Below, piece by piece: positions 25,226 to 57,252 of a DNA stretch of 64,000 bases (position 1 is its first letter; every line of letters begins with the position of its first letter). Made by a program: the position numbers and the translations under genes. The notes beneath the pieces were generated by a model. It did no database searches, had not been told where the DNA came from, and saw nothing but the letters and a program-made list of their open reading frames with translations. The stretch spans positions 64,001 through 128,000 of the forward strand of contig JBHLQH010000007.1 in the NCBI GenBank assembly GCA_048884965.1, written 5' to 3'. This stretch comes from Candidatus Thorarchaeota archaeon (GTDB lineage: Archaea; Asgardarchaeota; Thorarchaeia; Thorarchaeales; Thorarchaeaceae).

Positions 25226-25339
25226 GACCTGTTCAGGGACGAGCCGAGAGCAAATCTACCTACGCTTTAAGCTTTCCATTGTGACCCTCTGTATTACACA
25301 TAGTAAAATTCGGAACATGTGTTCTACCATACGATTACT

Positions 25340-25636
25340 ATGTCGATAATTCTATACCTGTATGATTTTCGACAAGCTCGTCAATCCAATGCCAGACGGG
25401 TGTCATTCACCAAAGAGCTTTATGGGTTCACTTACAGCTGGAAAACGAAATCAGGAGTGAAGCAAAAAAGAAAACCAGGTATTCTAGAGGAATGCCCAGG
25501 TACAGAGGCAGTAGCAGATTCAGCAATTCTGGTCCCTGTGGATCACAAAGGAATATTTGACATGTTATTCAAAGAATACGAGGATATTATGAATCTTCGA
25601 ATCTTTGAGATTGAAAAAGAGATAGATGATATTTAG
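25340..25636 (+). CDS. Small origin-adjacent protein, possible Cas2/VapD-like ferredoxin fold
   Basis: ILYLYDF...RRVSFTKELYG...DSAILVP pattern; start ATG 25340; fold is inferred. Confidence 0.5.
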   Translation: MSIILYLYDFRQARQSNARRVSFTKELYGFTYSWKTKSGVKQKRKPGILEECPGTEAVADSAILVPVDHKGIFDMLFKEYEDIMNLRIFEIEKEIDDI

Positions 25637-25713
25637 AACACGTGTTCCAATTTGCACTTTCTAAATGCATAAAGTAGACAGAACTAAGACCACGTGTTCT
25701 AAAATATGACAAA

Positions 25714-25879
25714 CCCCTTCATTTCCACTGGAAGATCGGCAAAATCTTGTTTACTAAATTATGCAAAAGTATTTATATAGATTTATGAAGCCTGTCTTTA
25801 TCTCCATTTTTATTATTATTATAGATAGACGCCCGATCACACACCATTTTTCTAAGTTCCAGTGGAAATAATGGGGGGG
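25714..25879. other. oriC: Probable replication origin: inverted ORB pair flanking an AT-rich unwinding element
   Basis: CCCCTTCATTTCCACTGGAA at 25714-25733 and GTTCCAGTGGAAATAATGGGGGGG at 25856-25879, with an AT-rich tract between. Confidence 0.8.
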
Positions 25880-26039
25880 TATTATCACCTAGAACACGTG
25901 TTCCAACAGATACGTAACGTATGGCATGGTAATACAACTATTACTATTGGGATTAAGAATTTGTTACAACCACAAGACTGATAGTCTATATTATTGCTCG
26001 ACGAGCTTGTCAGATAATGGCGCTAAGGAGGATCTTCGC

Positions 26040-27929
26040 TTGACAAAACCAAAAGAACTGCTTGAAGATGCACCTGGCAAGAATGTACTTCTTCTTGCTA
26101 ATGAGGCAATAGCAAGAGGCGTTCTAGAAGCGGGTGTACGCCTAGTCGCACTCTATCCTGGAACCCCAAGTAGCGAGATTGGCAATAATCTTACTTTTAT
26201 GGCACCTGAGATTCCAAATTTCTATTTTGAATTTAGTACGAATGAGAAGGTTGCACTTGAAGTAGCTGGGGCGGCAGCAGTTGCTGGCGTTCGTTCAATG
26301 ATGGTATGCAAAGGTCCTGGATTGAATGTCGCAGCGGATCCTTTCTTCTCTTTGGCCTATGTAGGTGTGAGAGGAGGTATGGTTATCGTAGTTGCTGATG
26401 ATCCAAGTATGTGGAGCTCCCAGAACGAGAATGATAGTCGTTACTACGCACTCATGGGTAATATGCCAATGATGGAACCAGCAGATCCTGCAGAAGCCAA
26501 AGCTATGTTGCTGGAAGCATTCGAGTTCTCTGAAAAAATCGAGCTTCCTGTCCTCTTCAGAACTACGACAAGAGTAAACCATACAAGAGCTCCTGTAGAG
26601 TTTGGACCGATCAAAGAACGACCTGATAAAATAGTGTTCGAAAAGGACCCATTCAGATTCGTGCCTATCCCCTCAGTTGCTAGAAAACGTCATCCCTTGC
26701 TACTTGAGCAGATCGAAAAGGCGCGTGCTCTTTCTGAGAACAGTCCTCTCAATTTCACTGAAGGGAAAGGCGATATGGGTATCATCACGAGCGGTGTATC
26801 ATACAACTATGTCGTCGAAGCAGTAAATCACCTTGAAATGAATGCAGAGCTCCTCAAGCTAGGCATTACTCATCCTCTACCTGAAAAAATGATTATTGAC
26901 TTTCTTAATCGGCATAAACAGGTAGTCATTGTAGAGGAATTGGAACCCTTCCTCGAAACACATGCGAGACGGTTAGCACAGCTTCATGGAATCCAAGTCG
27001 AGATTCTTGGAAAGGAGCAAGGTTTCTTCTCAAAGACCCTCGAGTACAGTCCAAGAATTGTAGTTGAGGCATTGTGCAAGATTAATAATCGTAATACATG
27101 TATCAACTGGGATGAAATTGATGAACGCAAGAATAGCCTTCTAGAGCTTCCCCCGAGACCTCCTTTACTCTGCGCCGGATGTCCTCACAGAGCAAGCTAC
27201 TTCGCAATAAGAACGGCAACACGTGGAAAAGCAATCTATCCCTCTGATATTGGTTGTTACACATTGAGCATTGCTCCACCCCTTGAAACGGCAGACATCC
27301 TCTTCGATATGGGATCCTCGATTACTACTGCATGTGGCCTTGCTCAAGTCACTGACCAAGATGTTGTAGCATCAGTTGGTGATAGCACCTTCTTTGCATC
27401 CGCACTTCCAGGATTGGTAAATGCTGTATACAATAGACACCCCGTATCGCTTGTTGTACTAGACAATCGTACTACAGCTATGACTGGACATCAACCTCAC
27501 CCCGGTACAGGCATTACGGGAATGCAGGAGCAAGTACCACCACTGGATATCGAGGAAGTGTCCCGTGGACTTGGTGTCAAGTATGTAAAGACAATAAATC
27601 CATTTGATTCAATCGCAGGACTTGTGACCGAAGTTCGAGAGATGGTCAAGTGGGCCAAGGAGAACAAAGCACCGGCAGTACTAGTATCAAAAGCTCCATG
27701 TGCACTTCTTACTGCTGCTGATCGTCATCGAAGCGGTGACTTTCCTCCAAAATATTATGTTGATTCTGAAGTATGCAATGCATGCAAGCGTTGTCTGAAC
27801 AAGTTATCCTGTCCAGCTATGTATGAGGATCCAGATACTGGGAAAGCTGTGATTGATGAAACACTTTGTAATCTATGTGGTACTTGTGTTTCAGTTTGTC
27901 CCCAAGGTGCAATCAAACAGGAGGAATGA
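26040..27929 (+). CDS. iorA: Indolepyruvate:ferredoxin oxidoreductase alpha subunit
   Basis: YPGTPSSE, NEKVALE, LCAGCPHR, DIGCY, GDST, C-terminal ferredoxin; start TTG 26040 after GGAGGA. Confidence 0.93.
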   Translation: MTKPKELLEDAPGKNVLLLANEAIARGVLEAGVRLVALYPGTPSSEIGNNLTFMAPEIPNFYFEFSTNEKVALEVAGAAAVAGVRSMMVCKGPGLNVAADPFFSLAYVGVRGGMVIVVADDPSMWSSQNENDSRYYALMGNMPMMEPADPAEAKAMLLEAFEFSEKIELPVLFRTTTRVNHTRAPVEFGPIKERPDKIVFEKDPFRFVPIPSVARKRHPLLLEQIEKARALSENSPLNFTEGKGDMGIITSGVSYNYVVEAVNHLEMNAELLKLGITHPLPEKMIIDFLNRHKQVVIVEELEPFLETHARRLAQLHGIQVEILGKEQGFFSKTLEYSPRIVVEALCKINNRNTCINWDEIDERKNSLLELPPRPPLLCAGCPHRASYFAIRTATRGKAIYPSDIGCYTLSIAPPLETADILFDMGSSITTACGLAQVTDQDVVASVGDSTFFASALPGLVNAVYNRHPVSLVVLDNRTTAMTGHQPHPGTGITGMQEQVPPLDIEEVSRGLGVKYVKTINPFDSIAGLVTEVREMVKWAKENKAPAVLVSKAPCALLTAADRHRSGDFPPKYYVDSEVCNACKRCLNKLSCPAMYEDPDTGKAVIDETLCNLCGTCVSVCPQGAIKQEE

Positions 27930-27932
27930 GGA

Positions 27933-28550
27933 ATGGATAGTATTACAAATAATACAGACATCACTAACATCGTGATATCAGGTGTTGGAGGTCAGGGCGT
28001 TCTCACCCTTGCAGAGATCCTTGCTAAGGCAGCCCTAGCCGAGTCACTTAATGTACGCGTTGGCGAGATTCATGGTATGGCACAACGCGGGGGACATGTG
28101 GTGTGTACAGTACGAATCGGAGATGGCGTAAAAGGACCAATAATCGATGAAGGAGATGCGCAGCTGGTAGTAGGGTTTGAACCGATTGAAACCTTGAGAG
28201 AAGTGCAATTTATCCGGACCAATGGTATGATCATAATGAACAGCCATGTGCAATATCCAGTTGCTGTTTCAATGGGAAAGGCTGAATATCCAGAACATAG
28301 TGAAATTCTCGAAGGACTGAAGAAGTTCACCTCTAACATCGTCGAGTTCGATGCCAGAAAGTTTGCTATGCAAGCAGGCAGTAGTAGATCAATGAATATA
28401 GTTATGTTAGGGGCTATCATTGGCAGTGGACTAGTACCTATCAAGAAGGATACGGCAATAGAAGTCGTACGAAATGCATTTCCAGGAAAGTTCGCCGATG
28501 CAAACATCAAGGCATTCGAACTTGGATATGAAGCTGCGAAAGCCAACTAG
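27933..28550 (+). CDS. iorB: Indolepyruvate:ferredoxin oxidoreductase beta subunit
   Basis: GVGGQG, GEIHGMAQRGG. Confidence 0.93.
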   Translation: MDSITNNTDITNIVISGVGGQGVLTLAEILAKAALAESLNVRVGEIHGMAQRGGHVVCTVRIGDGVKGPIIDEGDAQLVVGFEPIETLREVQFIRTNGMIIMNSHVQYPVAVSMGKAEYPEHSEILEGLKKFTSNIVEFDARKFAMQAGSSRSMNIVMLGAIIGSGLVPIKKDTAIEVVRNAFPGKFADANIKAFELGYEAAKAN

Positions 28551-28574
28551 ATTGTATTACTACTATTACAGTAT

Positions 28575-30947
28575 CTAGATACCAGTTACCAAGTGAGACG
28601 CTCCTACCATCACTTGACCAATAGACACTCCTCCATCTCCCGGAGGTATCCGACGATGGACTAATGGAGTCAATGCTGCAGACTTAATACTTGATACTAT
28701 TGCTTCTGTAATAATATGATTTAGAGCTACGCCTCCTGAGAATCCAATGTATCCTATGCCCTCTTGTTCGGCAACCTCTATCGCGAGACTTGCAAAACTA
28801 TGGCCGAGAAACCATTGAGCAGCATATGCCAATTGAGACACAGGCATGCCTTGATTCATATAATGGATCAAAGTTTGAATTGAGTCTGCTGTATCTATCA
28901 CTCGACGATTCCCGTCACGTAGAAAATGAGGTTCAATACGAAAATCTGTCTTCTTCGCTATTGCCTCAAGCTTCATTGGGCATTCTCCATCGTATGTATT
29001 GCTATCACAGACCCCTAGAACCGTAGCCACAGCATCAAGAAACCTACCAGCGCTTGAAGTCGTTATGGTATTGATCCCCTTGTCTATTATGCCAAGCAAT
29101 CTTGGAAGCATAGCCTCATTCAACACTACATTATCAGAAACCATATGCCCTTTTACTAGTGACACAATTTCATTCTCATCGAAGCTATCTTTTATCATCC
29201 CTATGAGTGGTCTAACTCCATACTTGGCAGAAAGATCTCCGCCAGGATATACATAGGACCGCAATCCTGCTTTATTCTCGAAACTCATACTATCTCCTAG
29301 AAGAATTTCTCCTCCCCATCCTGTTTTGTCCGCTCCATATCCATATCCATCTGCTGTAATACAGATAATACTTGTATCAGGCTTGAGATTGTGGTCGGCT
29401 AAGATGGAGGCAAGATGTGCATGATGATGTTGAACACGATAGAGAGGTACTTTCCAATCGGCACTAATCCTCTCTGCATGAAGTGTACTTAGAAATTCAG
29501 GATGCAAATCACAAGCAACCGCGTCAAACTTCTGCAATCCAATTAGATCAGCTAGATGGCGGTATGCATTTTCTAGGAACTCGATATTCTCTACATTATC
29601 AGTATCACCGATATATTGAGTGGGATAAAGAATACCTGATTTCAAGATAGTCGCCATAGCTTTTTCCTCAGGGCCAACCCCAAGAACCCGTAGTGATTTA
29701 TCAAATCCATCTATCAAGATGGGTTCTGGAGTATATCCTCTGGCGCGTCTGATGAAGAGTGGACTTTCCGCGTCGATGAATTTTATGACCGAATCGTCTG
29801 CTCTCTGGTGTATTCTCCTATTATGTAGTAGAAAATGATCAGCAATCCCTGAAAGTGCATGGACTATTACACTCGGATCTATATACATAGGAACTCCTGT
29901 GTGATTAGCACTTGTCATGACCAATGCTGGTTCTTTCAAGTATCTGAAGAGAAGGTGATGAACAGGTGCATACGGCAGCATCACACCTACGGTGTCTAGT
30001 CCAGGAGCAATCTCATCTAACACATCATGTTGTAATACAGATAATACACTCTCTGATGAGATTGAGTCTAGCATTCTCTTTCGTACTAGAACGATTGGTC
30101 TTTTCCAAGAAATGAGTAGCTTGCGTTCAGCTTCAGATAAGATGAAGTTCCTTTCCAGAGTTTCCAAATCTCTTACCATTATCGCAAATGGTCTTTGGAG
30201 TCTTTGCTTCCTTTGCCTTAGCTTTGTGATTGGATCAACACTGGACGTGATTGTTACTAGATGAGTTCCTGAAATCCCTTGGACTGCAAGCACTTCCCCT
30301 TGCTTGAGATATTCAGCTGAAGTCAAGATAGGATTAGGTGTGACTACATTGTTTCCTTTTCCATCCCTCAAATGATATGTAGGACCACATATCGCACAGG
30401 CTGTAGTTTGAGCATGATATCGTCTATCCATGGGATTTGTATAACCTGTATTACATGTATCACATAATGGAAAATCCTTCATTGTAGTATTCGGTCTGTC
30501 ATATGGAAGATCTGTAATAGTTGAGAACCGAGGTCCACATGCAGCACAAGAAGTGAATGGGTAATCCTTCCATCGAGATGATTGACTAGAAAGATCATCC
30601 TCACAACACTCACACATTGCAATATCAGGAGGTATAACCGGCTCTGACTCTTCGCTTTTCGTGATAGATGATTTCTCGATGACGAAATCATCATACTGTC
30701 CTTGGGTATCCTCCCAATCCAACTTAAACGAGTCAATACGTGCAATTGATGGAGGATCAGTCTTCAGGATATCAAGAAACTCTTGGATAGCTTCTCTTTT
30801 TCCTTCAACAACAATTCGCACACCCGCATCACCTAGGTTTAGGACATACCCTGTGAGAGAGAATTCCTTTGCGATTCTATATACAAAGGGCCTGAATCCT
30901 ACTCCTTGGACTATACCATTGATCTGAATTGTAGCTCGTATATTCAA
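28575..30947 (-). CDS. hypF: Hydrogenase maturation carbamoyltransferase
   Basis: GIVQGVGFRPFVY acylphosphatase domain, Zn fingers, VQHHHAH, PPGDGGVSIGQ. Confidence 0.95.
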   Translation of the reverse strand: MNIRATIQINGIVQGVGFRPFVYRIAKEFSLTGYVLNLGDAGVRIVVEGKREAIQEFLDILKTDPPSIARIDSFKLDWEDTQGQYDDFVIEKSSITKSEESEPVIPPDIAMCECCEDDLSSQSSRWKDYPFTSCAACGPRFSTITDLPYDRPNTTMKDFPLCDTCNTGYTNPMDRRYHAQTTACAICGPTYHLRDGKGNNVVTPNPILTSAEYLKQGEVLAVQGISGTHLVTITSSVDPITKLRQRKQRLQRPFAIMVRDLETLERNFILSEAERKLLISWKRPIVLVRKRMLDSISSESVLSVLQHDVLDEIAPGLDTVGVMLPYAPVHHLLFRYLKEPALVMTSANHTGVPMYIDPSVIVHALSGIADHFLLHNRRIHQRADDSVIKFIDAESPLFIRRARGYTPEPILIDGFDKSLRVLGVGPEEKAMATILKSGILYPTQYIGDTDNVENIEFLENAYRHLADLIGLQKFDAVACDLHPEFLSTLHAERISADWKVPLYRVQHHHAHLASILADHNLKPDTSIICITADGYGYGADKTGWGGEILLGDSMSFENKAGLRSYVYPGGDLSAKYGVRPLIGMIKDSFDENEIVSLVKGHMVSDNVVLNEAMLPRLLGIIDKGINTITTSSAGRFLDAVATVLGVCDSNTYDGECPMKLEAIAKKTDFRIEPHFLRDGNRRVIDTADSIQTLIHYMNQGMPVSQLAYAAQWFLGHSFASLAIEVAEQEGIGYIGFSGGVALNHIITEAIVSSIKSAALTPLVHRRIPPGDGGVSIGQVMVGASHLVTGI

Positions 30948-31050
30948 CCGGAAGGAACCTCTATATCTGGCATAATCTGTCAGAGATATTAATCCAGTGA
31001 AGTGGCAATTTCCCTTTATACATGTATTACAAGAATTACAAACTTTGTAG

Positions 31051-31503
31051 GTGCTCTTAAAGCTCTCTAAGCACTATAATATGATTGAAGTGCGGTCGAC
31101 ATCGGATAGGACGGGACCTATGTTCATTGAACCTGAAACAACTCCCTCCATACTAGCCAATATTCCCGAGTGCCTGAGAAGAGTTCTCAAAGAAACCTCT
31201 GAAGCAAGCACGAAAAAGAAAAGAGCTACATTAATCTCCAGTAATAGCTTGGCAAACAGATTTATTCTGGAACGATGGGGGATTCGTCCCTCACAAAGAA
31301 GACGGTTCAAGAATCTATTTGCATCAGTGCGAAAGCAATGTAGGAACATCTTTCAACATCTACTATCCAGGGGGAGACTGGAATGGAATATCGGCACAAC
31401 TAGATTCGTGTATGGAGTTTACAAATTCGATGAGATTCGTGGAAACCTGATCTTGGGCTTTGTTGACGTTCCGCCTGAAGAGGAGTGGACTCTTCCTATC
31501 TAA
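31051..31503 (+). CDS. Hypothetical basic protein; true start may be 31120
   Basis: R/K-rich ORF flanked by family A repeats on both sides. Confidence 0.55.
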   Translation: MLLKLSKHYNMIEVRSTSDRTGPMFIEPETTPSILANIPECLRRVLKETSEASTKKKRATLISSNSLANRFILERWGIRPSQRRRFKNLFASVRKQCRNIFQHLLSRGRLEWNIGTTRFVYGVYKFDEIRGNLILGFVDVPPEEEWTLPI

Positions 31504-31691
31504 TGAAACACACGTATTATCTGTATTACAATAGCAATAGTGAACCTTAAGAGATAGCAGATTCTACTTGTATACAATGTTGTATCCGCTCAAACAACAA
31601 TTAGAAACGTTTGTTAGACCACTCCTAGAGCAGCAAATTTCAATGTTTCTGACGATTTCAAGAAATCTTCCTAATCCAATGAGGTGCTGAA

Positions 31692-32243
31692 TTGAACGAA
31701 AGAAAACCCGAAACGCCGAATCAGGAAATTAGATCTGCAGCACAAAAGGCAAGACGAGCTCTTCGCGAACCCATGTTGAAAATTCTATTGGAGAGGTCCC
31801 TTCTTACCGATATACAGATGGAAACTCTACTAATCGATCTTGCGATAGAAGATCAAGTAGGAGATCATATCCCTTATGAAGACAAAGCCAGCATTCGCAG
31901 AAAATCAACAAGTAAATCGTCAGGTGTTTCTCGAGGCGCATTCAACCGAAGTCTAAGTCAGGCTCGTCGGAATGTCACACGGTGCCTCTATACCATGTTA
32001 CTATTAGCATATCTGGGACTATTTGACTATACTATATTTCGTCCATTTGAAGAATTATCCTCCAAGATTGGCGGGTACCAGAATATCCGAGAAGTACTTT
32101 CAGGTAGAGAAAATCTAACTACCGAGGATTTAGAAAGTTACAGAGCGGCAGAGCAGACAATAATGGAAGCACTTGAAGAATTGGCTTCACCTCTTATCCT
32201 TAAGTCAGAACTCTCTCGAAAGAAGCAGAACACTGATGAATAA
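31692..32243 (+). CDS. Putative HTH DNA-binding protein
   Basis: LLTDIQME...YEDKASIRR...GVSRGAFNRSLSQARRN resembles a sigma-region-4/Tfx-type HTH; GAGGTG SD. Confidence 0.6.
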   Translation: MNERKPETPNQEIRSAAQKARRALREPMLKILLERSLLTDIQMETLLIDLAIEDQVGDHIPYEDKASIRRKSTSKSSGVSRGAFNRSLSQARRNVTRCLYTMLLLAYLGLFDYTIFRPFEELSSKIGGYQNIREVLSGRENLTTEDLESYRAAEQTIMEALEELASPLILKSELSRKKQNTDE

Positions 32244-32573
32244 TACTTGTAATACAAGTATTCTATTAGAAAAAACGGCACGAATGTGTCGTACTCATAG
32301 GCACGGGGAACTGGACAAAGACTAGGATCCAAGCCGAATCGAATCGTCGCCCTATCTTCTGGAGGTTTATTGCTATGAGGAGATAGAGATAGAACCGAAG
32401 ACTCATTTCAGTTATATTCGATACCAATCTCTGTATAGTCGTATTCCTAAGATACGACACACTCATACTTTTCAGTACAACAATGATACATAGTTCTAAT
32501 CCTAGAACGAGCTGTTTTCAGATGATAAAGTGCGCAAAATCAATAATATATACATGTAATACAAGCAATACAA

Positions 32574-33878
32574 TTGAGGAAGAAGTCTTATTCCTCCTTG
32601 GATGGATATTTGTCCAAATCAAAGAGTCTTGTGATCATATTGGATGAGGAAAGTCCCTTTGAACGGATAATGAAAGCTAGTAAGAAGCACATTCAAAATT
32701 CTGAGAAAGAAGAGAACGTTCAAGCAATCACCAGTGCAATTGGCGAAAGACGCATGAGAGATCTTTTGGATAGTCTCGGAAAAACAGAAAGCTCGTTTGG
32801 ATGGCCTACTGCAGTTGAATACTTGATAGAATCATCAAACAAAGAATATCCAGTTCCTGTAGGATATGAAACTTCGAGCAAACCTCTTGAGTCTCTGAAA
32901 TTCAGGGAAGTGATATTCGATCTCTTCGATTGTCCTGGAATGGAACCAGTTTGTCTGGCTACGAATGCTCTACTAGAGGAGCTTTCGAACTCTGATTCAT
33001 ATATCTCAGCCAAATCAAAGTTCAGGGAACTTATCCACACTGCCACTGGCGAAAGTTTGGAAAATGGTGACACTCTTTTCTTCGAAACCGAGTTTCCCTC
33101 TACACTCTACTCAGATCATGAAATATTGAAAAAGGTAGAAGCATCTCAACTGAATGCCATCAAAGAAGTTAACCTTTCGTTTCAAGATGAGAGAATTCAT
33201 CTTCGGCCTCTCTGGTACTTGGAGCATAGTAGGAAGGCCTTAGCAGAACTTGGAATTCAGGATTCTTCGATTGACCCTGAATTATTCGCTATTGTAATAT
33301 CTGTATTACAAGTACCGCTTGAAATCAAGCAGCAAATCAAACAGTCATTAGGTGCTACATCTATCATGAACGAACCTGTGCAGCCTATGAATCCAGAATA
33401 CCAGTATCTGTTGGAATCTATCATCAATTGCGATGTTGAAAATCTAAGGAAACTTGGAAGTCGCCATGCATTTCCGACTTTTAGCTATCTTTTGAAGACA
33501 TATGCTGACAGATATAGATCATCAGAGAGTAGTACAGATTATCGGAACCTCCTATTGGCAATACGGGATCACATTTCTATCAGATGGAATGACTCTATTA
33601 TTGCTATTGCAGACCTAACTCAGATTTCGGACAATCGAATAACTACAGATGCGATTAGTGCACTTGGAAACTTCTATCATGAGTCAGCAGCATCTACATT
33701 AACAGAGATATTCTGTAAATCAACAGACAAGAGCAATCGCCGCTTGATATTGAAAACCATTGCTCATCTTGCAACAAGATGCCCGGAAACCAAGGAATCG
33801 GTTCGCCATGCACTCTCACAAGATTGCATGAACGATGGAGAACTTCGAAAGTTCTATGGGAAGACTTGGAAGATATGA
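32574..33878 (+). CDS. Hypothetical protein with C-terminal HEAT-like repeats
   Basis: RITTDAISALGNF...AASTLTEIF helical repeat pattern. Confidence 0.55.
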   Translation: MRKKSYSSLDGYLSKSKSLVIILDEESPFERIMKASKKHIQNSEKEENVQAITSAIGERRMRDLLDSLGKTESSFGWPTAVEYLIESSNKEYPVPVGYETSSKPLESLKFREVIFDLFDCPGMEPVCLATNALLEELSNSDSYISAKSKFRELIHTATGESLENGDTLFFETEFPSTLYSDHEILKKVEASQLNAIKEVNLSFQDERIHLRPLWYLEHSRKALAELGIQDSSIDPELFAIVISVLQVPLEIKQQIKQSLGATSIMNEPVQPMNPEYQYLLESIINCDVENLRKLGSRHAFPTFSYLLKTYADRYRSSESSTDYRNLLLAIRDHISIRWNDSIIAIADLTQISDNRITTDAISALGNFYHESAASTLTEIFCKSTDKSNRRLILKTIAHLATRCPETKESVRHALSQDCMNDGELRKFYGKTWKI

Positions 33879-33948
33879 TACTATACATATAATACTTGTA
33901 ATACAACCACTCGACAAACATAAATCAGGAGTCGAATTCGCACAGTAC

Positions 33949-35346
33949 ATGAATAGTCTACAGGCTGGCAAGACCGCTGATATTGATCCTTTCTTCAATC
34001 CGAAACGAGTCGCCTTGGTAGGAGCCTCTTCTGATTATAGGAAATTGGGGAATTCTATACTAATGAATCTCCTAGCATCAGAAATTGAAATCTACCCAAT
34101 TAGTAGGTCTAGCGATTATATTCTTGGAGCCAAAGTCTATCCAAGCCTGGAAGACTTGCCTGTTCCAGTAGATCTTGCAATAATAGTTGTAGCTGCTAAA
34201 TATTGCTCGAGTCTAATGACCGAAGTGAAGAAAGCTGGAGCGAGTCATGCGGTTGTAATCTCAGGAGGATTCAGCGAAACAGGACCTGAAGGACTTGAGC
34301 TAGAGCAGGAACTTGTTTCTGCAGCAAACAAAGCTGATGTCAGAATCATTGGACCAAATTGCGTAGGAGTATCAAACAGTAGACTATTCAACGGGACCTT
34401 TACCATGATGCCAGAACGCGGCAATATCGCACTACTATCCCAAAGTGGGGCACTAGGTGGAATGATTATCTATACTACTCGCGCCAAGAGGATTGGAGTA
34501 AGCAAGTTCGCAAGTATCGGCAATGCTGCTGACGTTGGATTTGTTGAGGTGCTAGATTATTTCCGGGAAGATATACGTACTAAAGTGATAGCTGTCTATG
34601 TAGAAGGTGTGGACGACGGAAGAGGATTCTTTGAGTCCCTTAGATATGCCGCAAAAGCGAAACCTACTGTTGTTCTCAAAGGTGGGCAGAGCGAGGCTGG
34701 AAGTAAAGCAACACAGAGCCATACTGGATCCCTAGCAGGATCTAGTAAGATATTCGATGGAATGGTAAAGCAAGCAGGTTGTGTGTCTGCTCCCACCCTT
34801 GACTCACTTCTTGAGATTTGCAAGCTTTTCGATTACCAGCCACTTCCTAAGGGGCGTAATATCGGTATTATCAGTAATACAGGTGGCGCGGGAGTGTTAG
34901 CCACTGATGCAGCCTCGAGCCTAGGATTGAATATCCCCTCTCTTGGCCATGAAACAACACATGAGCTCCGGCAAGTTCTTTCTCCCATGGCATCTGTCAA
35001 TAATCCCATTGATGTAGTAGCATCCGGTGGAAGGCGGGAGTATCGTGTAGCAACTGAGCTCCTTCTCAAAGATCCTTCCGTGGATATGCTTCTAGTAGTC
35101 TGTGCAGTTCCTACTTTCGCAGGGATGACCCAAACAGAACATGCTGCAGGAACTCTCGAAGGAGTTCGATCTGCTGGAACTGAGAAACCTGTAGTTGGAG
35201 TATGGCTATCGGCGGATGTTGGAAAACCTGGGAAGGATCTTCTTGAGATGAATCGAATTCCATGTTACGATGATCCTGCATTGGCAGCTCTTTGCATGTC
35301 TAAAACTGCAGAGTATGCTTACTACTTAGATCGCAACAAATGGTGA
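33949..35346 (+). CDS. acdA: ADP-forming acyl-CoA synthetase alpha subunit
   Basis: FFNPKRVALVGAS, ISGGFSE, GPNCVG, SQSGA, SHTGSLAG, NPIDV. Confidence 0.9.
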   Translation: MNSLQAGKTADIDPFFNPKRVALVGASSDYRKLGNSILMNLLASEIEIYPISRSSDYILGAKVYPSLEDLPVPVDLAIIVVAAKYCSSLMTEVKKAGASHAVVISGGFSETGPEGLELEQELVSAANKADVRIIGPNCVGVSNSRLFNGTFTMMPERGNIALLSQSGALGGMIIYTTRAKRIGVSKFASIGNAADVGFVEVLDYFREDIRTKVIAVYVEGVDDGRGFFESLRYAAKAKPTVVLKGGQSEAGSKATQSHTGSLAGSSKIFDGMVKQAGCVSAPTLDSLLEICKLFDYQPLPKGRNIGIISNTGGAGVLATDAASSLGLNIPSLGHETTHELRQVLSPMASVNNPIDVVASGGRREYRVATELLLKDPSVDMLLVVCAVPTFAGMTQTEHAAGTLEGVRSAGTEKPVVGVWLSADVGKPGKDLLEMNRIPCYDDPALAALCMSKTAEYAYYLDRNKW

Positions 35347-35370
35347 GATGTATTATTCGTATTACAGTTA

Positions 35371-35679
35371 TCAATTAAGGAACTCATGTGCGATTGACGG
35401 GAACTCATCCACCAAGGCATCTCTAAGCTTCTTTTCAACCCATAAACTCAGATTGATAGCCTTCTCATTTCTGACTGCTTGAAGACAAGATCTCAGTTCA
35501 GTAGTTACACTAAACGACATTATAGGACTCTTTCTTTCCTTATTTGGAACTGCAACTGGAGCTGAGTCTTCTTGTGTCGATACAACCCTTGTTGCTGTTG
35601 AGGCCGCAGAACTAACTGTAGTCTTTTCTTCTTCATCACGTCGTTCTTCTTCTTTCCGGTATTTTCCTAGTAGGCTCAT
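35371..35679 (-). CDS. Ribbon-helix-helix DNA-binding protein with disordered N-terminal tail
   Basis: Charged/S-T-rich N-terminal half, then beta strand IMSFSV, helix TELRSCLQAVRNE, turn, helix NLSLWVEKKLRDAL; TAATG stop/start coupling to the upstream ATPase. Confidence 0.7.
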   Translation of the reverse strand: MSLLGKYRKEEERRDEEEKTTVSSAASTATRVVSTQEDSAPVAVPNKERKSPIMSFSVTTELRSCLQAVRNEKAINLSLWVEKKLRDALVDEFPSIAHEFLN

Positions 35680-36674
35680 TAGCCCACCTCCTTCAGGATT
35701 GATTCGTAAGCACTTGCCACAAGCGAGGCAATCTCAACATCAACATCAGGCTTGCCCGCTCTCTTGAGATTCTCTGCTGCAACTTGTTGGCATCCTCTTG
35801 CTAGCATTCGAATGTCACGAGGATTGCCTTTTGCAGCACCATTGAGTACAGCAATCGACTCTTCGTGGAATGGATAGATACTGAACTCATCAGGGTCGAA
35901 TACGTCGATTTGTCCTTTCGCATAGGCAATTCTCCTACCGATGAATTCCTTCGCTTTCGCGTCGTTCAAAGGCGGGACATCCAATGGTTCTGTCCTATCT
36001 GCAATCTGCGGCAAGAATGATAGCATTGCGTTCCAGTACAAGACCGTACCAGACATTACCAGTGTTACAATGGGCTCATCAAGAGCTGTGCCACCATATT
36101 CATCCTTCATCTCTTCAGTTGGAAGATCTGCAAGGAAACGTAGCTTGTGAAATGCAGCTTCCTGATTGTCAGCAACATCTTCAATGAACAGCGCAGTACG
36201 ACTTTTTTCCTCGATGTATCTTCTCACACTCTCTTGAGCTACAGCATCAATGATTTGACTAGATTCCCATGACCTTCGATACTTGATACGCAGCGAATCT
36301 GCAATAGCAGCGCTCATCTGTTTCTCATAGAGCCCGGTCATACCGACATAGCCGGTGATGAACTTGTTCCCTCTTCTATCCGCAAGCGTGGGGAGATCTC
36401 TAAGTGCAAGTAGCATCAATGTGCTTTTTCCGCTACCTACTGGACCTCTAAGAAAGATGTGTCTTTCATTCGTAATTATGAGATCCACGATGGAATCTAA
36501 GAAGTCCGGATGCTCAACATAGAGTCTGCTATCAGGCATTTTGAAACCTCTGAAGGGGCTAAAGCGAGCTCCAATCTTCTCTTCCCAAGCTCTCAGGGTT
36601 TCCTTTCGCGTGTTGAAATGGCGTATCAATGCGGATTCGTGGATGGCTATGGTCATCGTCAAACCTCGTATCAC
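35679..36674 (-). CDS. ExeA-like AAA+ ATPase
   Basis: SPF...LYV.H, GPVGSGKST, ALFIED, VMSGT, PQIADR, PPL...EFIGRRI..A.G, GNPRDI. Confidence 0.8.
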   Translation of the reverse strand: MIRGLTMTIAIHESALIRHFNTRKETLRAWEEKIGARFSPFRGFKMPDSRLYVEHPDFLDSIVDLIITNERHIFLRGPVGSGKSTLMLLALRDLPTLADRRGNKFITGYVGMTGLYEKQMSAAIADSLRIKYRRSWESSQIIDAVAQESVRRYIEEKSRTALFIEDVADNQEAAFHKLRFLADLPTEEMKDEYGGTALDEPIVTLVMSGTVLYWNAMLSFLPQIADRTEPLDVPPLNDAKAKEFIGRRIAYAKGQIDVFDPDEFSIYPFHEESIAVLNGAAKGNPRDIRMLARGCQQVAAENLKRAGKPDVDVEIASLVASAYESILKEVG

Positions 36675-36834
36675 ATGTACTTATTGTAATACAATTATCA
36701 ATTGCCTTTCACTGATAAAGGTTGTGAGAAATATATCGGACTGGCGCCATACATTTTCATACACAACCTTTTTGAACTGAAAACATTCGTGTTGGTATCG
36801 GACACTTTGTCCTAATTTCAGGAGAACCCCAATT

Positions 36835-37113
36835 ATGGATGTCAGCCGGATTCAAAGAATCTTGACCTCGCTAATGATACTCAGCTTCCTAATCTTTGGC
36901 CTATTAGCTGGAGTTATACTGATCACTGATGCACCTGTGGATAGTTCAACAGCATCACTTCCCTTCGCATTTCTTTTCATCTCAGCCATGTCTCTCATCA
37001 CAACAGGACAAATCAACGAGAATCCAAAAAGAGTGGAAAAACACCTCCGAGATTGGCTACTTTTGTGTGTCATAGCTGTGGTTATCAGTGCACTGGCCTT
37101 CGGGTTTGCATAA
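36835..37113 (+). CDS. Small 3-TM membrane protein
   Basis: Three hydrophobic segments; AGGAG SD; divergent from the ATPase-RHH operon. Confidence 0.6.
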   Translation: MDVSRIQRILTSLMILSFLIFGLLAGVILITDAPVDSSTASLPFAFLFISAMSLITTGQINENPKRVEKHLRDWLLLCVIAVVISALAFGFA

Positions 37114-37199
37114 TACGCATCAAAACAGTTTTAGGAACTCATTGAGTGTCTGTGCTACTGCATATCTTTGCAATAAGTTTCTCTGAAGATGTGACCAAC

Positions 37200-37829
37200 A
37201 TGAGTAAAATTCTTGCAGGTACCAAGACTACCCGAATGGAGTTATTACGGCTCAAGAACAGAATGCGTTTAGCTGAACGTGGTCACAATCTACTGAAGGA
37301 GAAACGTGATTCCCTCATTATGGAGTTCTTCAACGCTATTTCTGAGATTAAGGAAGCAAGGCAATCCGTTGAAGGTACTCTATCTGAAGCTTTCTCAAGC
37401 CTTACCCAAGCAAAAATGGTAATGGGACCTGCTCGAGTCATTGAGTTTGCATACGCGAGCAAGGTACAGACTGACATTAGCATAGCAACACGGTCGATGA
37501 TGGGTGTGAGAGTGCCTGTGATGAGCGTTGAGCAACACGTCCCAGAGCTTCCTTATTCGCTTCCCGATTCTAGCGCTCGCTTGGATACCATGAGCATCAA
37601 ATTCAGAGAAGCACTAAAATCACTTACTCGGCTTGCTGAAATCGAGTCCACTGTCAAAAGACTAGCTCTTGAAATCGAACGAACCAAGAGAAGAGTATCC
37701 GCTCTTGAAACAATCGTGATTCCACGTCTTGATGCGTCTGCTCGATTTGTTAGACTTGCGCTTGAGGAACGAGAACGAGAAGACTTCATACGCTTGAAGA
37801 TGATTCGTGATCGAATGGATGTATCCTAG
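37200..37829 (+). CDS. atpD: A/V-type ATP synthase subunit D
   Basis: TRMELLRLK, GHNLLKEKRDSL, EIERTKRRVSALE, LEEREREDFIRLK. Confidence 0.93.
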   Translation: MSKILAGTKTTRMELLRLKNRMRLAERGHNLLKEKRDSLIMEFFNAISEIKEARQSVEGTLSEAFSSLTQAKMVMGPARVIEFAYASKVQTDISIATRSMMGVRVPVMSVEQHVPELPYSLPDSSARLDTMSIKFREALKSLTRLAEIESTVKRLALEIERTKRRVSALETIVIPRLDASARFVRLALEEREREDFIRLKMIRDRMDVS

Positions 37830-37937
37830 CATTTCAATCTCAGAGGGCATATTGTTTTCCTTACGGCGGATCATAGACCTAGAGCCTCTTCGATTGAAAT
37901 GCCAGAGAGTTGTGATACTTGTAATACAATCTCTACT

Positions 37938-38330
37938 CTAACGTTTCAGTTTGAGTATGGCGGCAGCAAGATCTCCATCAGTTTCCTTGAGAGCCTCAGT
38001 AGCCTCTTCTATACTAACGCCTGTCTGCGCAGCAACGAGAGCAGCATCTTCGACAGGAATCTCGATCTCCTTTGGTCCGGGATAGTTGTCTGCACCATCT
38101 GCAGCTGCTTCTACAGCGGCAGTCAACCCACGTTCAGTCTTGGCGCCAGATACTTGGTATGACTCACTCCCTGCCTGCTTGATCACGCCTACCTGCGGGT
38201 TCGATATGAGCCACTCCTTGTCCTGGAAGCGGATGATCACTTCCTTGACGCCCTTCAGGTCGTTCTGCTCTATACCCATCTTCTTCATCATTCTGGCCAT
38301 TTGCTTTGGAGACATACCTCGGAATCCCAT
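37938..38330 (-). CDS. nac: Nascent polypeptide-associated complex protein
   Basis: MMKKMGI...VKEVII and C-terminal UBA ALKETDGDLAAAILKL. Confidence 0.92.
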   Translation of the reverse strand: MGFRGMSPKQMARMMKKMGIEQNDLKGVKEVIIRFQDKEWLISNPQVGVIKQAGSESYQVSGAKTERGLTAAVEAAADGADNYPGPKEIEIPVEDAALVAAQTGVSIEEATEALKETDGDLAAAILKLKR

Positions 38331-49273: not shown

Positions 49274-50227
49274 ATGCAAGTCGGACTAGTCTATATGAAA
49301 AAGGTGCCACAGTTCGCGTTGAAGGTCGAGGGGAAGACCGTTCTGCGGTCTGATGATGCCGAGTCCATTCTCAGGGAAATGGCTCGACGTATCGATTCCG
49401 AGAATGAGGTGTCTTCCGAAGCTGAGATACCATCTGCTGGTCAAAGATTGTTCTCGGATGTAGTATACATCGCAGGACAAATCGTTGACTGGATGTATCA
49501 AGAGATTCCATCAGTCCATAGAACAGAAATGCATCTGGAGGGAGCGACAATTGATGACGAATACGACTATCCAGTTAGGAATGTCATTATCAAGATTGAA
49601 GGAGGCTCTCTTCAAAAGCTCCGGACTCATATAGAGCAAGAGATAGAGATTCGTGAATTCATGTATCATGACATCCTGTTTGAAATCCTAGATATCATCC
49701 ACAATGACACTCCTTGTCTGGTATTACAAATAATACCACGACCCAAGGTACCACTGGCTCCTGTAGGGGAGCACAAAGGTGGAATGCCCTTCAATCTACG
49801 AGAAGCCATAACTGATGAGCTAAGGAAGAACTCGCAACATACCTATACAAAGACAGTCATTCAAAGAATCTTGAATCGACATTGCAAATGTGAGCAAATT
49901 AGACACGGAATAAACCTGGTCGAGTTATCCTTGACCCAGAAGGAATTCTCTACCAACGAGATTCGAGCCGCAGAGATGTGTCTTGAATATCTCAGTGATA
50001 CACGGGAAGGGAAGAGCTTGCTTGGTATGTGGAATAATCGTGAAGCCATTCGAGGGAAATGGGATCAACGGGACATACCAAGCCGAGCGTTCATCTCGCA
50101 GGTCTACGAGTGGTTTGGGGACATACGAACGAGACAGTGTCATGAACTATCGCAATCCTACCGAGAACTCAGTCGTGTGAGTCAATTGGATGATGAAGTA
50201 CTAGAGCAAGCTAGTGCTCCAAAATAA
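49274..50227 (+). CDS. Hypothetical protein
   Basis: 317-aa ORF with no recognised motif. Confidence 0.55.
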   Translation: MQVGLVYMKKVPQFALKVEGKTVLRSDDAESILREMARRIDSENEVSSEAEIPSAGQRLFSDVVYIAGQIVDWMYQEIPSVHRTEMHLEGATIDDEYDYPVRNVIIKIEGGSLQKLRTHIEQEIEIREFMYHDILFEILDIIHNDTPCLVLQIIPRPKVPLAPVGEHKGGMPFNLREAITDELRKNSQHTYTKTVIQRILNRHCKCEQIRHGINLVELSLTQKEFSTNEIRAAEMCLEYLSDTREGKSLLGMWNNREAIRGKWDQRDIPSRAFISQVYEWFGDIRTRQCHELSQSYRELSRVSQLDDEVLEQASAPK

Positions 50228-50829: not shown

Positions 50830-50841
50830 ATCAAGTCACCT

Positions 50842-53631: not shown

Positions 53632-53634
53632 CTA

Positions 53635-55611: not shown

Positions 55612-55663
55612 AAGTTCGCTTGCCTTTCATACCTCCTTTAGAAGGTATCCATAGGTGTAATTT

Positions 55664-56974
55664 CTATCCTTTGAGGTATCTCTCCTGAAGTACCCGAGTC
55701 ATCCCATTGTTCTGAATGATATCCTTGAACATGAACGCGCTCTCGCGAGGCTGTCGATTCAGCGTTTGATGTTCCATGCCAACCAGACCAAAATCACTGC
55801 CAAATCCCTCCGCCCACTCGAAGTTCGTGACCCAAGTCCAGATCAGGTACCCCCGGATGTCTATCCCATCCTGTATCGCTCTATGGACTTGCTGCAAATG
55901 TTTCATGATGTATTTACGCTTGAGAGAGTCATCTGTCGTCCCGATTCCGTTCTCTGTCATCCAAAGGGGCTTTTGATACTTCTCCCAGTATGATTTGATG
56001 AGTGGATAGTATCCTTCAGGATACACCTCCCAGTCAAGGCCATCACATCTTTCTGCAATAGTCTTTTCCGGGGCTTCTCCTGCCAAGAAGTCCATCTCTG
56101 AGGAAACAACCTGTCGACTGTAGTAGTTCATACCAATGAAATCAACAGAGTTCTCTAGTTGCTTGTACCGGAACTCATTACCATCTGCATCTGGTACCTT
56201 AGCCGTCACAGCTCCTCGTACCCAGGCTTGATTGTATAGATCATCAAGATAGTTCGCCAGTTCGATGTCCTCAGGACTTTCAGCATTCTGAGGCATGAAG
56301 TAGGAAACACTGAGGACTGGTGCGATCAATGGCTGTTCCTTTCCCTGTTCCGTATAGACCTCTCGAACAGATGTAGCAGCCTGACCATGTGCCATAAGCA
56401 TGTGCTGGGTGACAGTCATAGCCTTTCCAAAGTCCTTCTCTTGAGGGGGAAAGTCCCCGAAAAGATACCCCGCGGCCGCGATGACCATGGGCTCATTTAT
56501 CGTATTCCAGATTATATCCAAATCCGAAAGGGCTTCTGCAACCTTTCGGGCATAGATGCCAAATATCTCAGGCGCCTCAGGATTCAACCATGATCCCATG
56601 TCACGGAACCAAAGCGGGATGGTGAAATGATGAAGGGTGAGCATTGGCTGTATCCCGCGTTCAAGCAAGGAACTAACGACCTTTCTGTAGTGGCCAAGTT
56701 CCTTCTCGTTCCATCTACCTTGAACTGGCTCAATTCGGCTCCATTCCACAGAGAAACGATGCACATGATGGCCAAACTCCTTCATCAGATCAAAATCATC
56801 TTCGAACCGAGCATAGTGGTCACATGCGACGCTCGCATTCTTTCCATCCTTGATATTACCTGGAATCTTCTCCCATTCACTCCAATCATTATGAGTTCCT
56901 CCTTCGCTCTGATGAGCAGAAGAAGCAGTGCCCCATCTGAAGCCATCTGGGAAAATGAGGTCCTTGTAGTCCAT
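55664..56974 (-). CDS. Glycoside hydrolase family 1 beta-glycosidase
   Basis: FPDGFRWG, HQSEG, TINEP, MTENG; start moved to ATG 56974 because the longer ORF overlaps tRNA-Leu. Confidence 0.92.
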   Translation of the reverse strand: MDYKDLIFPDGFRWGTASSAHQSEGGTHNDWSEWEKIPGNIKDGKNASVACDHYARFEDDFDLMKEFGHHVHRFSVEWSRIEPVQGRWNEKELGHYRKVVSSLLERGIQPMLTLHHFTIPLWFRDMGSWLNPEAPEIFGIYARKVAEALSDLDIIWNTINEPMVIAAAGYLFGDFPPQEKDFGKAMTVTQHMLMAHGQAATSVREVYTEQGKEQPLIAPVLSVSYFMPQNAESPEDIELANYLDDLYNQAWVRGAVTAKVPDADGNEFRYKQLENSVDFIGMNYYSRQVVSSEMDFLAGEAPEKTIAERCDGLDWEVYPEGYYPLIKSYWEKYQKPLWMTENGIGTTDDSLKRKYIMKHLQQVHRAIQDGIDIRGYLIWTWVTNFEWAEGFGSDFGLVGMEHQTLNRQPRESAFMFKDIIQNNGMTRVLQERYLKG

Positions 56975-57029
56975 TGTAATCCTGTTTGAAACACCTTTCG
57001 ACTCAATAAGGGTATCTCTTGGAATATTG

Positions 57030-57147
57030 TGGTGCGGGAGGAGGGACATCCTACCCATATGGCAACCAGATGGGTGTTCGAACCCTCGAACTCCTACGAG
57101 AGAGGATCTTAAGTCCTCCGCCTTTGACCTGGCTGGGCGACTCCCGC
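57030..57147 (-). tRNA. tRNA-Leu(TAA) with 30-nt intron at 59/60 (57047-57076)
   Basis: GCGGGAG/CTCCCGC, GAGGA-CT-TAA-GA-TCCTC, long variable arm, TTCGAA|intron|T. Confidence 0.92.
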
Positions 57148-57252
57148 TTTGATCAAAGTCTGACCCCACGTCTTACCTTCATAGGAACTCACCGCATGTG
57201 TTCCCACCATTGTATTACAAGTAATAACAATTGATGTTGAGGAATGCAAAGA

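Follow-up and report, generated by a model that had tools for sequence, protein, structure and literature searches.

An origin-bounded field of GTAWTAC palindrome arrays around an AAA+ ATPase and ribbon-helix-helix operon in a Thorarchaeota archaeon: a candidate centromere-like domain

A 64,000-nucleotide stretch of a Thorarchaeota (Asgard) genome, referred to here as the window, was found to carry a field of short palindromic arrays built around the core GTAWTAC. The window corresponds to positions 64001 to 128000 of contig C7 of the assembly analyzed (G000; 4,089,206 bp in 99 contigs), and coordinates given without a prefix are those of the window. The field begins at a pair of origin recognition boxes (ORBs), extends at fairly even intervals through unrelated genes and encloses an operon for an AAA+ ATPase (AAA331) and a small, predicted ribbon-helix-helix (RHH) protein (hyp102). 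Our preferred explanation, to which a probability of about 55% is assigned, is that the RHH protein binds the arrays and, together with its AAA+ partner, would build a centromere-like origin domain resembling those of SegAB and ParABS. The field itself is ancient and under selection, as detailed below.

The original prediction reported eight exact copies of TTGTAWTACAA at a rough chance expectation of about 0.1. All eight were present where predicted, the expectation from dinucleotide-preserving shuffles was 0.03, and no further copy was found in the whole 4,089,206-bp assembly. With up to one mismatch allowed in the 11-mer, 18 of the 72 positions in the genome fell within the 33-kb field (0.58 expected), in agreement with the roughly nine near-exact copies counted earlier. 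The 7-bp core occurred 27 times in the window (4.1 expected), with 26 of these between 25291 and 57218. The 21 cores between 25291 and 40757 represent a ~24-fold enrichment over the genome rate of 0.056 per kb (230 cores in total, relative to a Markov expectation of ~289, or at most mild avoidance). The first 25 kb of the window, said to lack exact copies, contained a single bare GTAATAC (3406), without flanks or neighboring units. A 25-bp matrix built from the field, scanned across the genome as the original prediction had proposed, gave 20 matches at a score of ≥16, of which 19 were in the field; as the matrix was trained on the field's own sites, only the near-absence of matches elsewhere in the genome is informative. 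The observation was thus confirmed and is stronger than first stated. The remaining match (C61:9843-9867; core 9852; score, 20.7) is the sole strong GTAWTAC array outside the field and is located in a divergent intergenic spacer, where it may be a lone regulatory target. The contig carrying it encodes KaiC-like and response-regulator proteins. Other GTAWTAC clusters in G000 (C39, C14, C75 and the 10- to 20-kb region of C7) were without TT/AA flanks or 9-bp neighbors and were rejected as chance occurrences.

Alignment of the sites on their cores revealed TT and AA flanks and a repetition of (G)TA(W)TA(C) at positions −9 to −3 and +9 to +15, in line with the 9-bp period originally claimed. One site consists of two to four tandem 9-bp units around a GTAWTAC core, and the 25-bp array is a palindrome centered on the central W. 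This anatomy fits RHH operators because a palindromic core is accompanied by neighboring units at 9 bp. The met boxes of MetJ are likewise tandem short palindromic units of less than one helical turn (8 bp for MetJ and 9 bp here) and are read by adjacent cooperating RHH dimers; in the present case, the sequence layout fits and the dimers are predicted. Unlike these arrays, MetJ sites are promoter operators of a metabolic regulon dispersed through the genome.

Spacing of the 21 sites in the dense field ranged from 307 to 1445 bp, with a mean of 773 bp and a coefficient of variation (CV) of 0.40. Random placement gave a CV of 0.96, and in 20,000 simulations such regularity was never reached. The dense part ends at 40757; two array-like outliers are present at 49721 and 57212, and the cores at 42017, 45871 and 48659 look like chance cores. 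The field and its sites are listed below, without strand.

25291 to 40765: dense field of 21 GTAWTAC-core arrays with a mean spacing of 773 bp; the left bound is oriC.
25282 to 25306: array, core 25291, left of the ORB pair and 25 bp 5' of the 105-aa gene; weak flanks.
25920 to 25944: array, core 25929, 50 bp right of the second ORB, at the iorA start.
27082 to 27106: array, core 27091, within iorA.
27931 to 27964: array, cores 27940 and 27949, at the iorA/iorB junction.
28545 to 28578: array, core 28554, between the convergent iorB and hypF ends.
29347 to 29371: array, core 29356, within hypF.
30023 to 30047: array, core 30032, within hypF.
30439 to 30463: array, core 30448, within hypF.
31015 to 31039: array, core 31024, in the spacer of the divergent hypF and 150-aa genes.
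31514 to 31538: array, core 31523, directly past the end of the 150-aa gene.
32240 to 32264: array, core 32249, exact 11-mer, 9 bp past the end of the 183-aa gene.
32547 to 32571: array, core 32556, 15 bp 5' of the 434-aa gene.
33294 to 33318: array, core 33303, within the 434-aa gene.
33889 to 33913: array, core 33898, exact 11-mer, in the start region of the CoA-ligase gene.
34856 to 34889: three-unit array, core 34874, within the CoA-ligase gene.
35350 to 35374: three-unit array, core 35359, 9 bp past the RHH gene stop, between convergent gene ends.
36660 to 36701: four-unit array, core 36686, exact 11-mer, 12 to 47 bp 5' of the conserved ATG of the AAA+ gene.
37912 to 37936: array, core 37921, exact 11-mer, between the convergent ATP-synthase D and NAC ends.
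38505 to 38529: array, core 38514, exact 11-mer, within Trm5/Taw2.
39303 to 39327: array, core 39312, exact 11-mer, in the Trm5/PAN spacer.
40748 to 40772: array, core 40757, exact 11-mer, 5' of PAN; last site of the dense field.
49712 to 49736: outlying two-unit array, core 49721, within the 317-aa gene.
57203 to 57227: outlying array, core 57212, exact 11-mer, 46 bp 5' of the 501-aa gene.

Three sites are located between convergent gene ends (28554, 35359 and 37921) and seven lie deep within coding sequences (27091, 29356, 30032, 30448, 33303, 34874 and 38514), while roughly a third of all sites are positioned 15 to 35 bp 5' of start codons. Sites at convergent ends, and within hypF, the 434-aa gene and Trm5/Taw2, had been described in the original prediction, as had the functional unrelatedness of the flanking genes, and both descriptions held. 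The field genes (iorAB-like oxidoreductase, HypF, ADP-forming CoA ligase, ATP synthase D, NAC, Trm5/Taw2, PAN, RpiA, PGK and a Ras-like GTPase) have unrelated housekeeping functions.

Conservation was analyzed in 75 related loci (1.24 Mb; 38 to 53% GC), in which the GTAWTAC core was detected 1029 times (0.83 per kb) and a reversed control 153 times. Sites occupied the same slots in the 38 loci with full 10-kb flanks, and their positions, intragenic ones included, are thus shared by 38 Thorarchaeota species. The slot directly 5' of the ATPase gene was filled in all 38 of these loci (100%), the slot directly past the small RHH gene in 87% and the next one in 97%; on average, the origin side of the operon carried 11.9 sites over 9.6 kb and the opposite side 3.4 over 9.9 kb. 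Codon alignments indicated that the motif was kept in 67 of 70 orthologs at 34874 (CoA ligase), 50 of 51 at 29356 (hypF), 42 of 51 at 30448 (hypF), 50 of 58 at 33303 (434-aa gene) and 42 of 49 at 27091 (iorA), with variation in the residues encoded at the last of these sites. It was kept in 13 of 35 orthologs at 30032 (hypF) and in 21 of 65 at 38514 (Trm5/Taw2). Third-codon-position entropy at 27091, 29356, 30448, 33303 and 34874 was among the lowest 1 to 5% within each gene, so that the synonymous-site conservation sought in the original prediction was found at five intragenic copies. As the motif stays in place at 27091 despite residue change and third-position entropy is low, selection is acting at the level of the DNA.

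The operon within the field consists of two overlapping genes.

35679 to 36674, minus strand: AAA+ ATPase gene (331-aa open reading frame), encoding a P-loop protein with Walker A GPVGSGKST, Walker B FIEDV and sensor 2 GNPRD.
35371 to 35679, minus strand: RHH protein gene (102 aa), the start of which overlaps the ATPase stop.

The two genes overlap at 35679 on the minus strand, and each is single copy in the genome. The conserved start of the ATPase is probably the ATG at 36656. AAA331 also carries sensor 1 and an arginine finger, and its identity across the family is 80 to 92%. Relatives are scarce, with 26 matches among 1.84 billion cluster representatives. Assemblies in which relatives of the ATPase were identified are from Thorarchaeota (Asgard). 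An AlphaFold model (pLDDT, 88), which ends with lid helices at residue 330, had its closest folds in archaeal Orc/Cdc6 proteins (Z, 19.1 to 18.6; A. pernix ORC2, P. aerophilum Cdc6 and S. solfataricus Orc1), followed by TnsC (Z, 18.1), the MuB-DNA filament (Z, 17.4) and generic Clp-type AAA+ proteins (Z, ~15 to 16). AAA331 is without a winged-helix domain: there was no match to Cdc6_C or Cdc6_lid, Pfam returned weak AAA_22 and AAA_16 matches only, and the matches to PF09079 (the C-terminal winged helix with which Orc1/Cdc6 initiators read ORB DNA) in this genome were to three other genes. Searches of NCBIfam and of PDB sequences with AAA331 gave nothing meaningful. The protein is not of the ParA type, as the deviant Walker A KGGxxK[ST] and the SIMIBI fold are absent and the fold is AAA+, which also sets it apart from the actin-like ATPases of type II ParMRC systems; genes of the ParA/MinD family were present on other contigs only. 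Its housekeeping neighbors, conserved chromosomal synteny across the 75 loci and single-copy status indicate that AAA331 is not part of a mobile element, and no PADLOC matches were obtained for four field proteins.

The prediction of an RHH fold for hyp102 is well supported. An alignment of hyp102 in 34 orthologs (alignment A1) exhibited an invariant N-terminal MSLLGKYR, with L4, K6, Y7 and R8 invariant, followed by a variable acidic linker and a conserved strand-helix-turn-helix C terminus. The MSLLGKYR peptide is unique in the genome. An ortholog in locus L091 (34% identity; E, 4e-13) passed the Pfam cutoff for RHH_1, and the Atlas structure neighbors of hyp102 belonged to CopG, RHH_3, RHH_1 and ParG clusters. 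In a comparison with all PDB structures, RHH proteins dominated (omega on heptad repeats, NikR, ParD, TacA and SegB); scores were low (Z of ≤3.6), as expected of a 45-residue half-dimer, and SegB (7duv; Z, 2.9; root mean square deviation, 2.5 over 48 residues) was tied with many other RHH proteins. Foldseek searches with the monomer model gave E values of 4 to 9 only, the top rows being Arc, MatP and TacA. A complex prediction for AAA331 with two hyp102 copies scored 0.01 and was counted neither for nor against binding. A small contig (L094:486-2472) was observed to carry an RHH gene (66 aa) and an AAA331 homolog, followed by a gene for a KaiC-like ATPase, the N terminus of which contains three VLSKY[RK]K repeats similar to the N-terminal peptide of hyp102. 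Judging by these repeats, a peptide of the hyp102 type looks portable.

The left boundary of the field falls at a predicted origin, the surroundings of which are as follows.

25714 to 25879, no strand: oriC core, comprising an inverted ORB pair (25714-25733 and 25857-25879) with G-strings outward.
21614 to 21625, minus strand: third ORB core with a G-string, 4.1 kb from the pair.
872 to 2083, minus strand: Orc1/Cdc6 gene (403 aa), ~24 kb from the ORB pair.
25319 to 25636, plus strand: 105-aa gene adjoining the ORB pair and conserved there in other Asgard families.
31692 to 32243, plus strand: 183-aa protein gene with an invariant helix-turn-helix (HTH)-like motif, GVSxGAFxRxLxQA, which travels with the AAA+/RHH operon in other Asgard families.

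The ORB copies, each TTCCAGTGGAAA and then a G-string, are inverted and flank a 123-bp AT-rich spacer, the putative DNA unwinding element (DUE), in a layout described for Pyrococcus (oligonucleotide sequences, PMC1904270). The GTAWTAC sites at 25291 and 25929 bracket the pair, from which the field extends rightward only, and the arrays share nothing with the ORB elements (TTCCA-N-TGGAA core plus G-string), to which Orc1/Cdc6 binds. A field bounded by an ORB was also seen in three further genera. In a complete chromosome (G031), the field occupies 1,794,378 to 1,808,004, and ORBs are located at 1,807,481 and ~1,807,613, the second being a looser match. No site was present in the next 46 kb of G031, and of the 97 cores in its 2.58 Mb, 12 were in the 13.6-kb field; the Orc1/Cdc6 gene is again ~24 kb past the ORBs. 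The field of G014 lies at 364.8 to 381.3 kb, with ORBs at 378,140 and 382,209, and that of G010 at 157.6 to 169.9 kb, with an ORB at 154,853. An extra ORB with a G-string was observed ~4.1 kb from the main ORB, at a spacing conserved in three genera (21614 versus 25722/25857 in the window, 1,807,481 versus 1,811,731 in G031, and 378,140 versus 382,209 in G014). A second Orc1/Cdc6 gene, with two exact ORB cores adjoining (G000:C7:10802-12065), shares a contig with the field's origin, at a distance of only ~78 kb, and the two cdc6 loci of G031 are ~1.05 Mb apart. A local change in the sign of GC skew near 22 to 28 kb was not used as evidence of an origin, the polarity probably being that of gene orientation.

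Orthologs of the module were also detected in other Asgard families. The ATPase profile found strong orthologs (E, <1e-60) in 6 of the 27 families sampled in the phylum (f1, f2, f3, f7, f19 and f21) but no such ortholog in families such as f5 (0 of 13 genomes) and f9 (0 of 25). The operon is 1 to 10 kb from an ORB pair in families f1, f2, f3, f7 and f19. In f19 and f7, a conserved cluster of ~10 kb runs from cdc6 through genes of 206 and 101 aa, the ORB pair, the AAA+ gene and a small RHH-like gene to a 169-aa gene and hypF; the same genes occur within ~8 kb in f3, in another order, although hypF was not seen in the part of f3 that was analyzed. The 211-, 105- and 183-aa genes of Thorarchaeota (21917-22552, 25319-25636 and 31692-32243) are homologs of the 206-, 101- and 169-aa genes (E, 2e-11, 6e-23 and 1e-20, respectively). 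Judged by these homologies, Thorarchaeota carry the same oriC cluster in a stretched form. No Pfam or NCBIfam match was obtained for the 211-, 105- and 183-aa cluster proteins.

The motif at the operon changed with the RHH protein in these lineages. In the Thorarchaeota family, L085 and L091, the RHH strand follows the pattern I/V-x-S/T-x-S/T and GTAWTAC is found at the operon. The corresponding strand in f19 and f7 is NFNVR(M/L)P, which resembles the QFNLRW strand of Arc, and GATATC repeats with a period of ~13 bp are present 5' of the ATPase gene. In a complete 3.6-Mb f19 genome, GATATC-N6-8-GATATC occurred 10 times, with 9 of the 10 in an 11.4-kb region containing oriC and the operon (1,636,680 to 1,648,120), and the reversed control occurred 0 times. 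There is therefore a second, independent field on the origin side, and its motif differs as the RHH protein does. In the 183-aa protein, by contrast, the HTH-like motif does not vary among any of these lineages, and this protein is thus unlikely to set GTAWTAC or GATATC specificity. In L091, the ATPase gene (product 44% identical) is followed by an RHH gene with the same N-terminal peptide and then by nine GTAWTAC cores in a 950-bp spacer, six of which are consecutive units at 9 to 11 bp. No ORB was found within 10 kb of these arrays. The layout of L091 is compact and, by analogy, resembles a par cassette.

The mechanism proposed is as follows. One RHH dimer would bind each palindromic 7-bp core, with two to four dimers cooperating side by side on the 9-bp units. 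The ~21 arrays, 0.3 to 1.4 kb apart from oriC through the operon to 4 kb past it, would gather ~15 kb of origin-proximal DNA into a single hard-wired nucleoprotein domain without spreading, and intervals of this size would favor looping of the DNA between sites. The AAA+ partner, having no DNA-reading domain of its own, would bind DNA as an ATP-dependent oligomer under the control of the invariant N-terminal MSLLGKYR of the RHH protein, in the manner of the ParG and SegB tails on ParF and SegA or of transposase tails acting on MuB or TnsC (MuB-MuA and TnsC-TnsB). The resulting role would be centromere-like, that is, to mark, compact and position or segregate the newly replicated origin region, and the array in the operon promoter would provide autoregulation as a by-product. 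Some of the sites, such as this promoter array, probably also regulate transcription. The motif's restriction to one locus, array anatomy, spacing, conservation, the origin boundary, conservation of the operon, the RHH and AAA+ folds and the covariation were observed or computed, while the binder of the sites, coupling of the ATPase to the peptide, looping and a role in segregation are inferred.

Among described systems, SegAB of Sulfolobales (SegA being a ParA-like ATPase) is the closest. Shared features are two overlapping genes with the ATPase first, a DNA binder of ~100 aa in which a conserved N-terminal tail and variable middle precede a C-terminal RHH domain, a palindrome where the ATPase gene begins and many narrow, mostly intragenic sites near the operon and origin. 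SegB is a 109-aa RHH protein with an N terminus that activates SegA and a site at the segA start (PMC8682754, PMC12284271); its 46 narrow sites are 84% intragenic, with 16 peaks in the 50 kb around segAB and oriC1 (PMC12284271), and the tails of ParG and SegB activate ParF and SegA (PMC8682754). The present ATPase, in contrast, is an AAA+ protein of the Orc/Cdc6-TnsC-MuB group rather than a ParA/Walker-type protein, no sequence similarity to SegB was detected with the A1 profile, and the structural match is at the level of the RHH superfamily only (Z, 2.9). The sites also differ, as GTAWTAC is arranged in 9-bp tandem units rather than as TCTAGA-S-TCTAGA, and they are far denser (21 in 15.5 kb), even, essentially confined to a single locus and sharply bounded by oriC. 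In type Ib plasmid partition (ParF-ParG of TP228 and delta-omega of pSM19035), the flexible N-terminal tail of an RHH binder activates the ATPase, the centromere consists of short tandem repeats that each bind one dimer (7-bp heptads for omega), and the operon is autoregulated through these repeats. Exactly this compact layout is seen in the L091 lineage, whereas the system described here is chromosomal and origin linked, has an ATPase of another superfamily and has repeats spread over ~15 kb, including intragenic positions. ParABS is similar in having palindromic sites next to oriC, a nucleoprotein domain of ~10 to 20 kb (proposed here) and a dedicated ATPase partner, but ParB, an HTH CTPase clamp, spreads outward from a small number of parS sites, while many fixed sites and a nonspreading RHH protein are envisaged here, and the ATPase is AAA+ rather than ParA. 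With respect to fold, the ATPase is closest to MuB, TnsC and Orc1/Cdc6 (Z, 17 to 19). Proteins of the MuB/TnsC group assemble on double-stranded DNA into ATP-dependent oligomers or filaments, which a short partner peptide remodels, and by analogy such peptide-driven remodeling could replace ParA in a partition-like ratchet. This system differs from MuB and TnsC in being a conserved single-copy chromosomal gene with no transposase or TniQ partner, and from Orc1/Cdc6 in having no winged helix and in matching no Pfam Cdc6 model (Cdc6_C or Cdc6_lid).

Several points weigh against the centromere-like reading. The whole proposal rests on sequence comparison, and the ORB pair is regarded as an origin from its architecture. 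The ATPase is not of the ParA, actin or tubulin type, so that no known partition mechanism transfers directly; since its nearest folds are replication initiators, replication control is equally indicated. The field is one-sided relative to oriC, which is not required of a centromere, and the sites 15 to 35 bp 5' of start codons could simply repress transcription. A sister family of Thorarchaeota (G019/L085) has the operon and the promoter site but no field, indicating that the field is not essential to the module; a de novo search of L085 for an alternative motif found none. With regard to the RHH protein, Pfam searches with hyp102 and 33 orthologs returned no RHH family and only spurious low-complexity matches, the A1 profile retrieved no RHH chain, including SegB, from the PDB sequences (there was one irrelevant match), and the monomer model is weak (pLDDT, 65). 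The covariation of motif and RHH protein rests on two motif types only.

A module for replication control would consist of an RHH protein that delivers an Orc/Cdc6-like AAA+ protein to the arrays and thereby regulates the origin, with no movement of the chromosome. Such a module might restrict origin firing or set its timing, keep newly replicated origin DNA sequestered or together, or act on the fork that leaves oriC on that side. The folds closest to the ATPase (archaeal Orc/Cdc6; Z, 19) are consistent with such a role, as are the proximity of the module to ORB pairs (1 to 10 kb in five families), its membership in a conserved cdc6-to-hypF cluster and a field that begins at the ORB pair, with two sites bracketing the pair, and is one-sided in four genera. 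The ATPase, however, has no winged-helix, Cdc6_C or Cdc6-lid match, the strongest sites are those around the operon, 5 to 11 kb from the ORBs, while the two flanking the origin are the weakest, and the DUE contains no array. Furthermore, L091 has no detected ORB within 10 kb of its arrays, and it is partition cassettes that characteristically combine an ATPase with tandem arrays and an RHH protein whose N-terminal tail is conserved. Replication control is considered unlikely, if still a serious competitor given the initiator-like folds and the tight linkage to oriC. Arrays that nucleate a compacted or insulated origin domain, or that recruit SMC/condensin as ParB-parS does, without a partition motor, are considered improbable. 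Mechanics of DNA suggest that an even spacing of 0.3 to 1.4 kb would suit looping, the field is hard-wired rather than made by spreading, and SegB compacts and loops DNA in vitro (PMC12284271). Such a domain leaves a dedicated, extremely conserved ATPase (80 to 92% identity) unexplained; it largely overlaps the centromere-like reading and does not exclude it.

The arrays could alternatively represent a local transcription regulon, in which the RHH protein acts as a conventional repressor of origin-proximal genes and its own operon, perhaps with a link to the cell cycle, and in which intragenic and 3'-end sites are internal promoters, roadblocks or low-cost extra operators. The operon-promoter site is present in every species, roughly a third of sites are 15 to 35 bp 5' of start codons, the strong array at C61:9852 is in a divergent promoter region, and archaeal RHH regulators of the cell cycle are known (aCcr1 and CdrS). 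The flanking housekeeping genes, though, are functionally unrelated; at least seven sites deep in conserved coding sequences and three between convergent ends are maintained family-wide under synonymous constraint; spacing is quasi-regular irrespective of gene structure; and essentially all sites are in one 15-kb stretch of a 4-Mb genome. Simple repression would also leave the conserved AAA+ partner and the invariant N-terminal peptide without a role, and a regulon seems a rather poor candidate on this evidence. The original prediction had proposed a structural, parS- or centromere-like role rather than a regulon. Its first half is well supported by the single locus, the family-wide positions, the synonymous constraint and the spacing, and the parS analogy gains from the ATPase and RHH operon with a promoter site in the field, the ORB-DUE-ORB boundary and the tandem-array cassette of L091. 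The earlier interpretation is partly supported. The system appears from its sequences to be of the type with an ATPase, an RHH protein and centromere sites but with a motor of a different superfamily. That the arrays have no function at all, being due to chance or compositional clustering, restriction-modification, Chi or dif signals or relics of mobile elements, is scarcely credible. An AT-rich motif is the only point in its favor, and against it are the eight copies observed versus 0.03 expected in shuffles, positions kept across genomes of 38 to 53% GC, the absence of PADLOC matches and a syntenic, chromosomal locus. A restriction-modification target was rejected because genome-wide avoidance, not one cluster, is predicted; Chi, KOPS or dif signals because the palindrome lacks polarity and there is more than a single site; MITE or transposon relics because sites are in frame within conserved housekeeping genes with no insertions; an RNA-level signal because sites occur in both orientations and between convergent genes; and an integrated element because of the housekeeping genes and conserved synteny.

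A wider proposal, made tentatively, is that several Asgard families possess, in an ancestral oriC cluster, a new class of partition or origin-organizing machine, with an Orc/Cdc6-TnsC-MuB-like AAA+ protein instead of a ParA, actin or tubulin homolog as the motor, and with an RHH adaptor that delivers it to a hard-wired, evenly spaced, multi-kb "regional centromere" of repeats that co-evolve with the adaptor. [quoted passage not shown] No description of the system was found in the literature searched on the motif, on Asgard segregation or origin systems or on AAA+ plus RHH partition; the archaeal system that has been described, SegAB, was reported from Sulfolobaceae and Euryarchaeota and not from Asgard archaea. 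If the AAA+ protein acts as a motor, an initiator- or MuB-like ATPase can stand in for ParA, and replication-origin machinery would be tied to segregation within one conserved cluster. A sequence-defined field of ~15 kb would be a rare prokaryotic centromere-like structure of the "regional" rather than the "point" type, and the field imposes visible constraints on coding sequence and gene order. The locus provides a testable list of parts (a cis element, an RHH protein with a candidate ATPase-control peptide, an AAA+ partner and a canonical ORB-type origin) and natural variants in the compact L091 cassette, the dispersed Thorarchaeota field and the GATATC field of f19, opening Asgard chromosome biology to direct in vitro tests.

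Additional features were observed around the origin. A second palindrome, TAGAACACGTGTTCCAA, with the core GAACACGTGTTC, is present in four copies around the ORB pair (25313-25329, 25634-25650, 25686-25702 and 25890-25906), and a palindrome with this core also adjoins the ORB pairs of two other Asgard families (L112:7153 and L114:10935). A further conserved origin protein probably binds this palindrome, the candidates being the 105-, 211- and 183-aa proteins. A cluster of (T)GTTAAC(A) palindromes was detected between the cdc6-side genes and the ORB pair of an f7-type Asgard locus (L095:8075-8604). The gene hypF was a constant neighbor of the cluster in four families out of five, and no reason for this is apparent. 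Among palindromic 7-mers of G000, TTTWAAA (113) and GTTWAAC (64) were strongly underrepresented, which suggests that TTTAAA and GTTAAC are avoided in this genome, perhaps through restriction systems.

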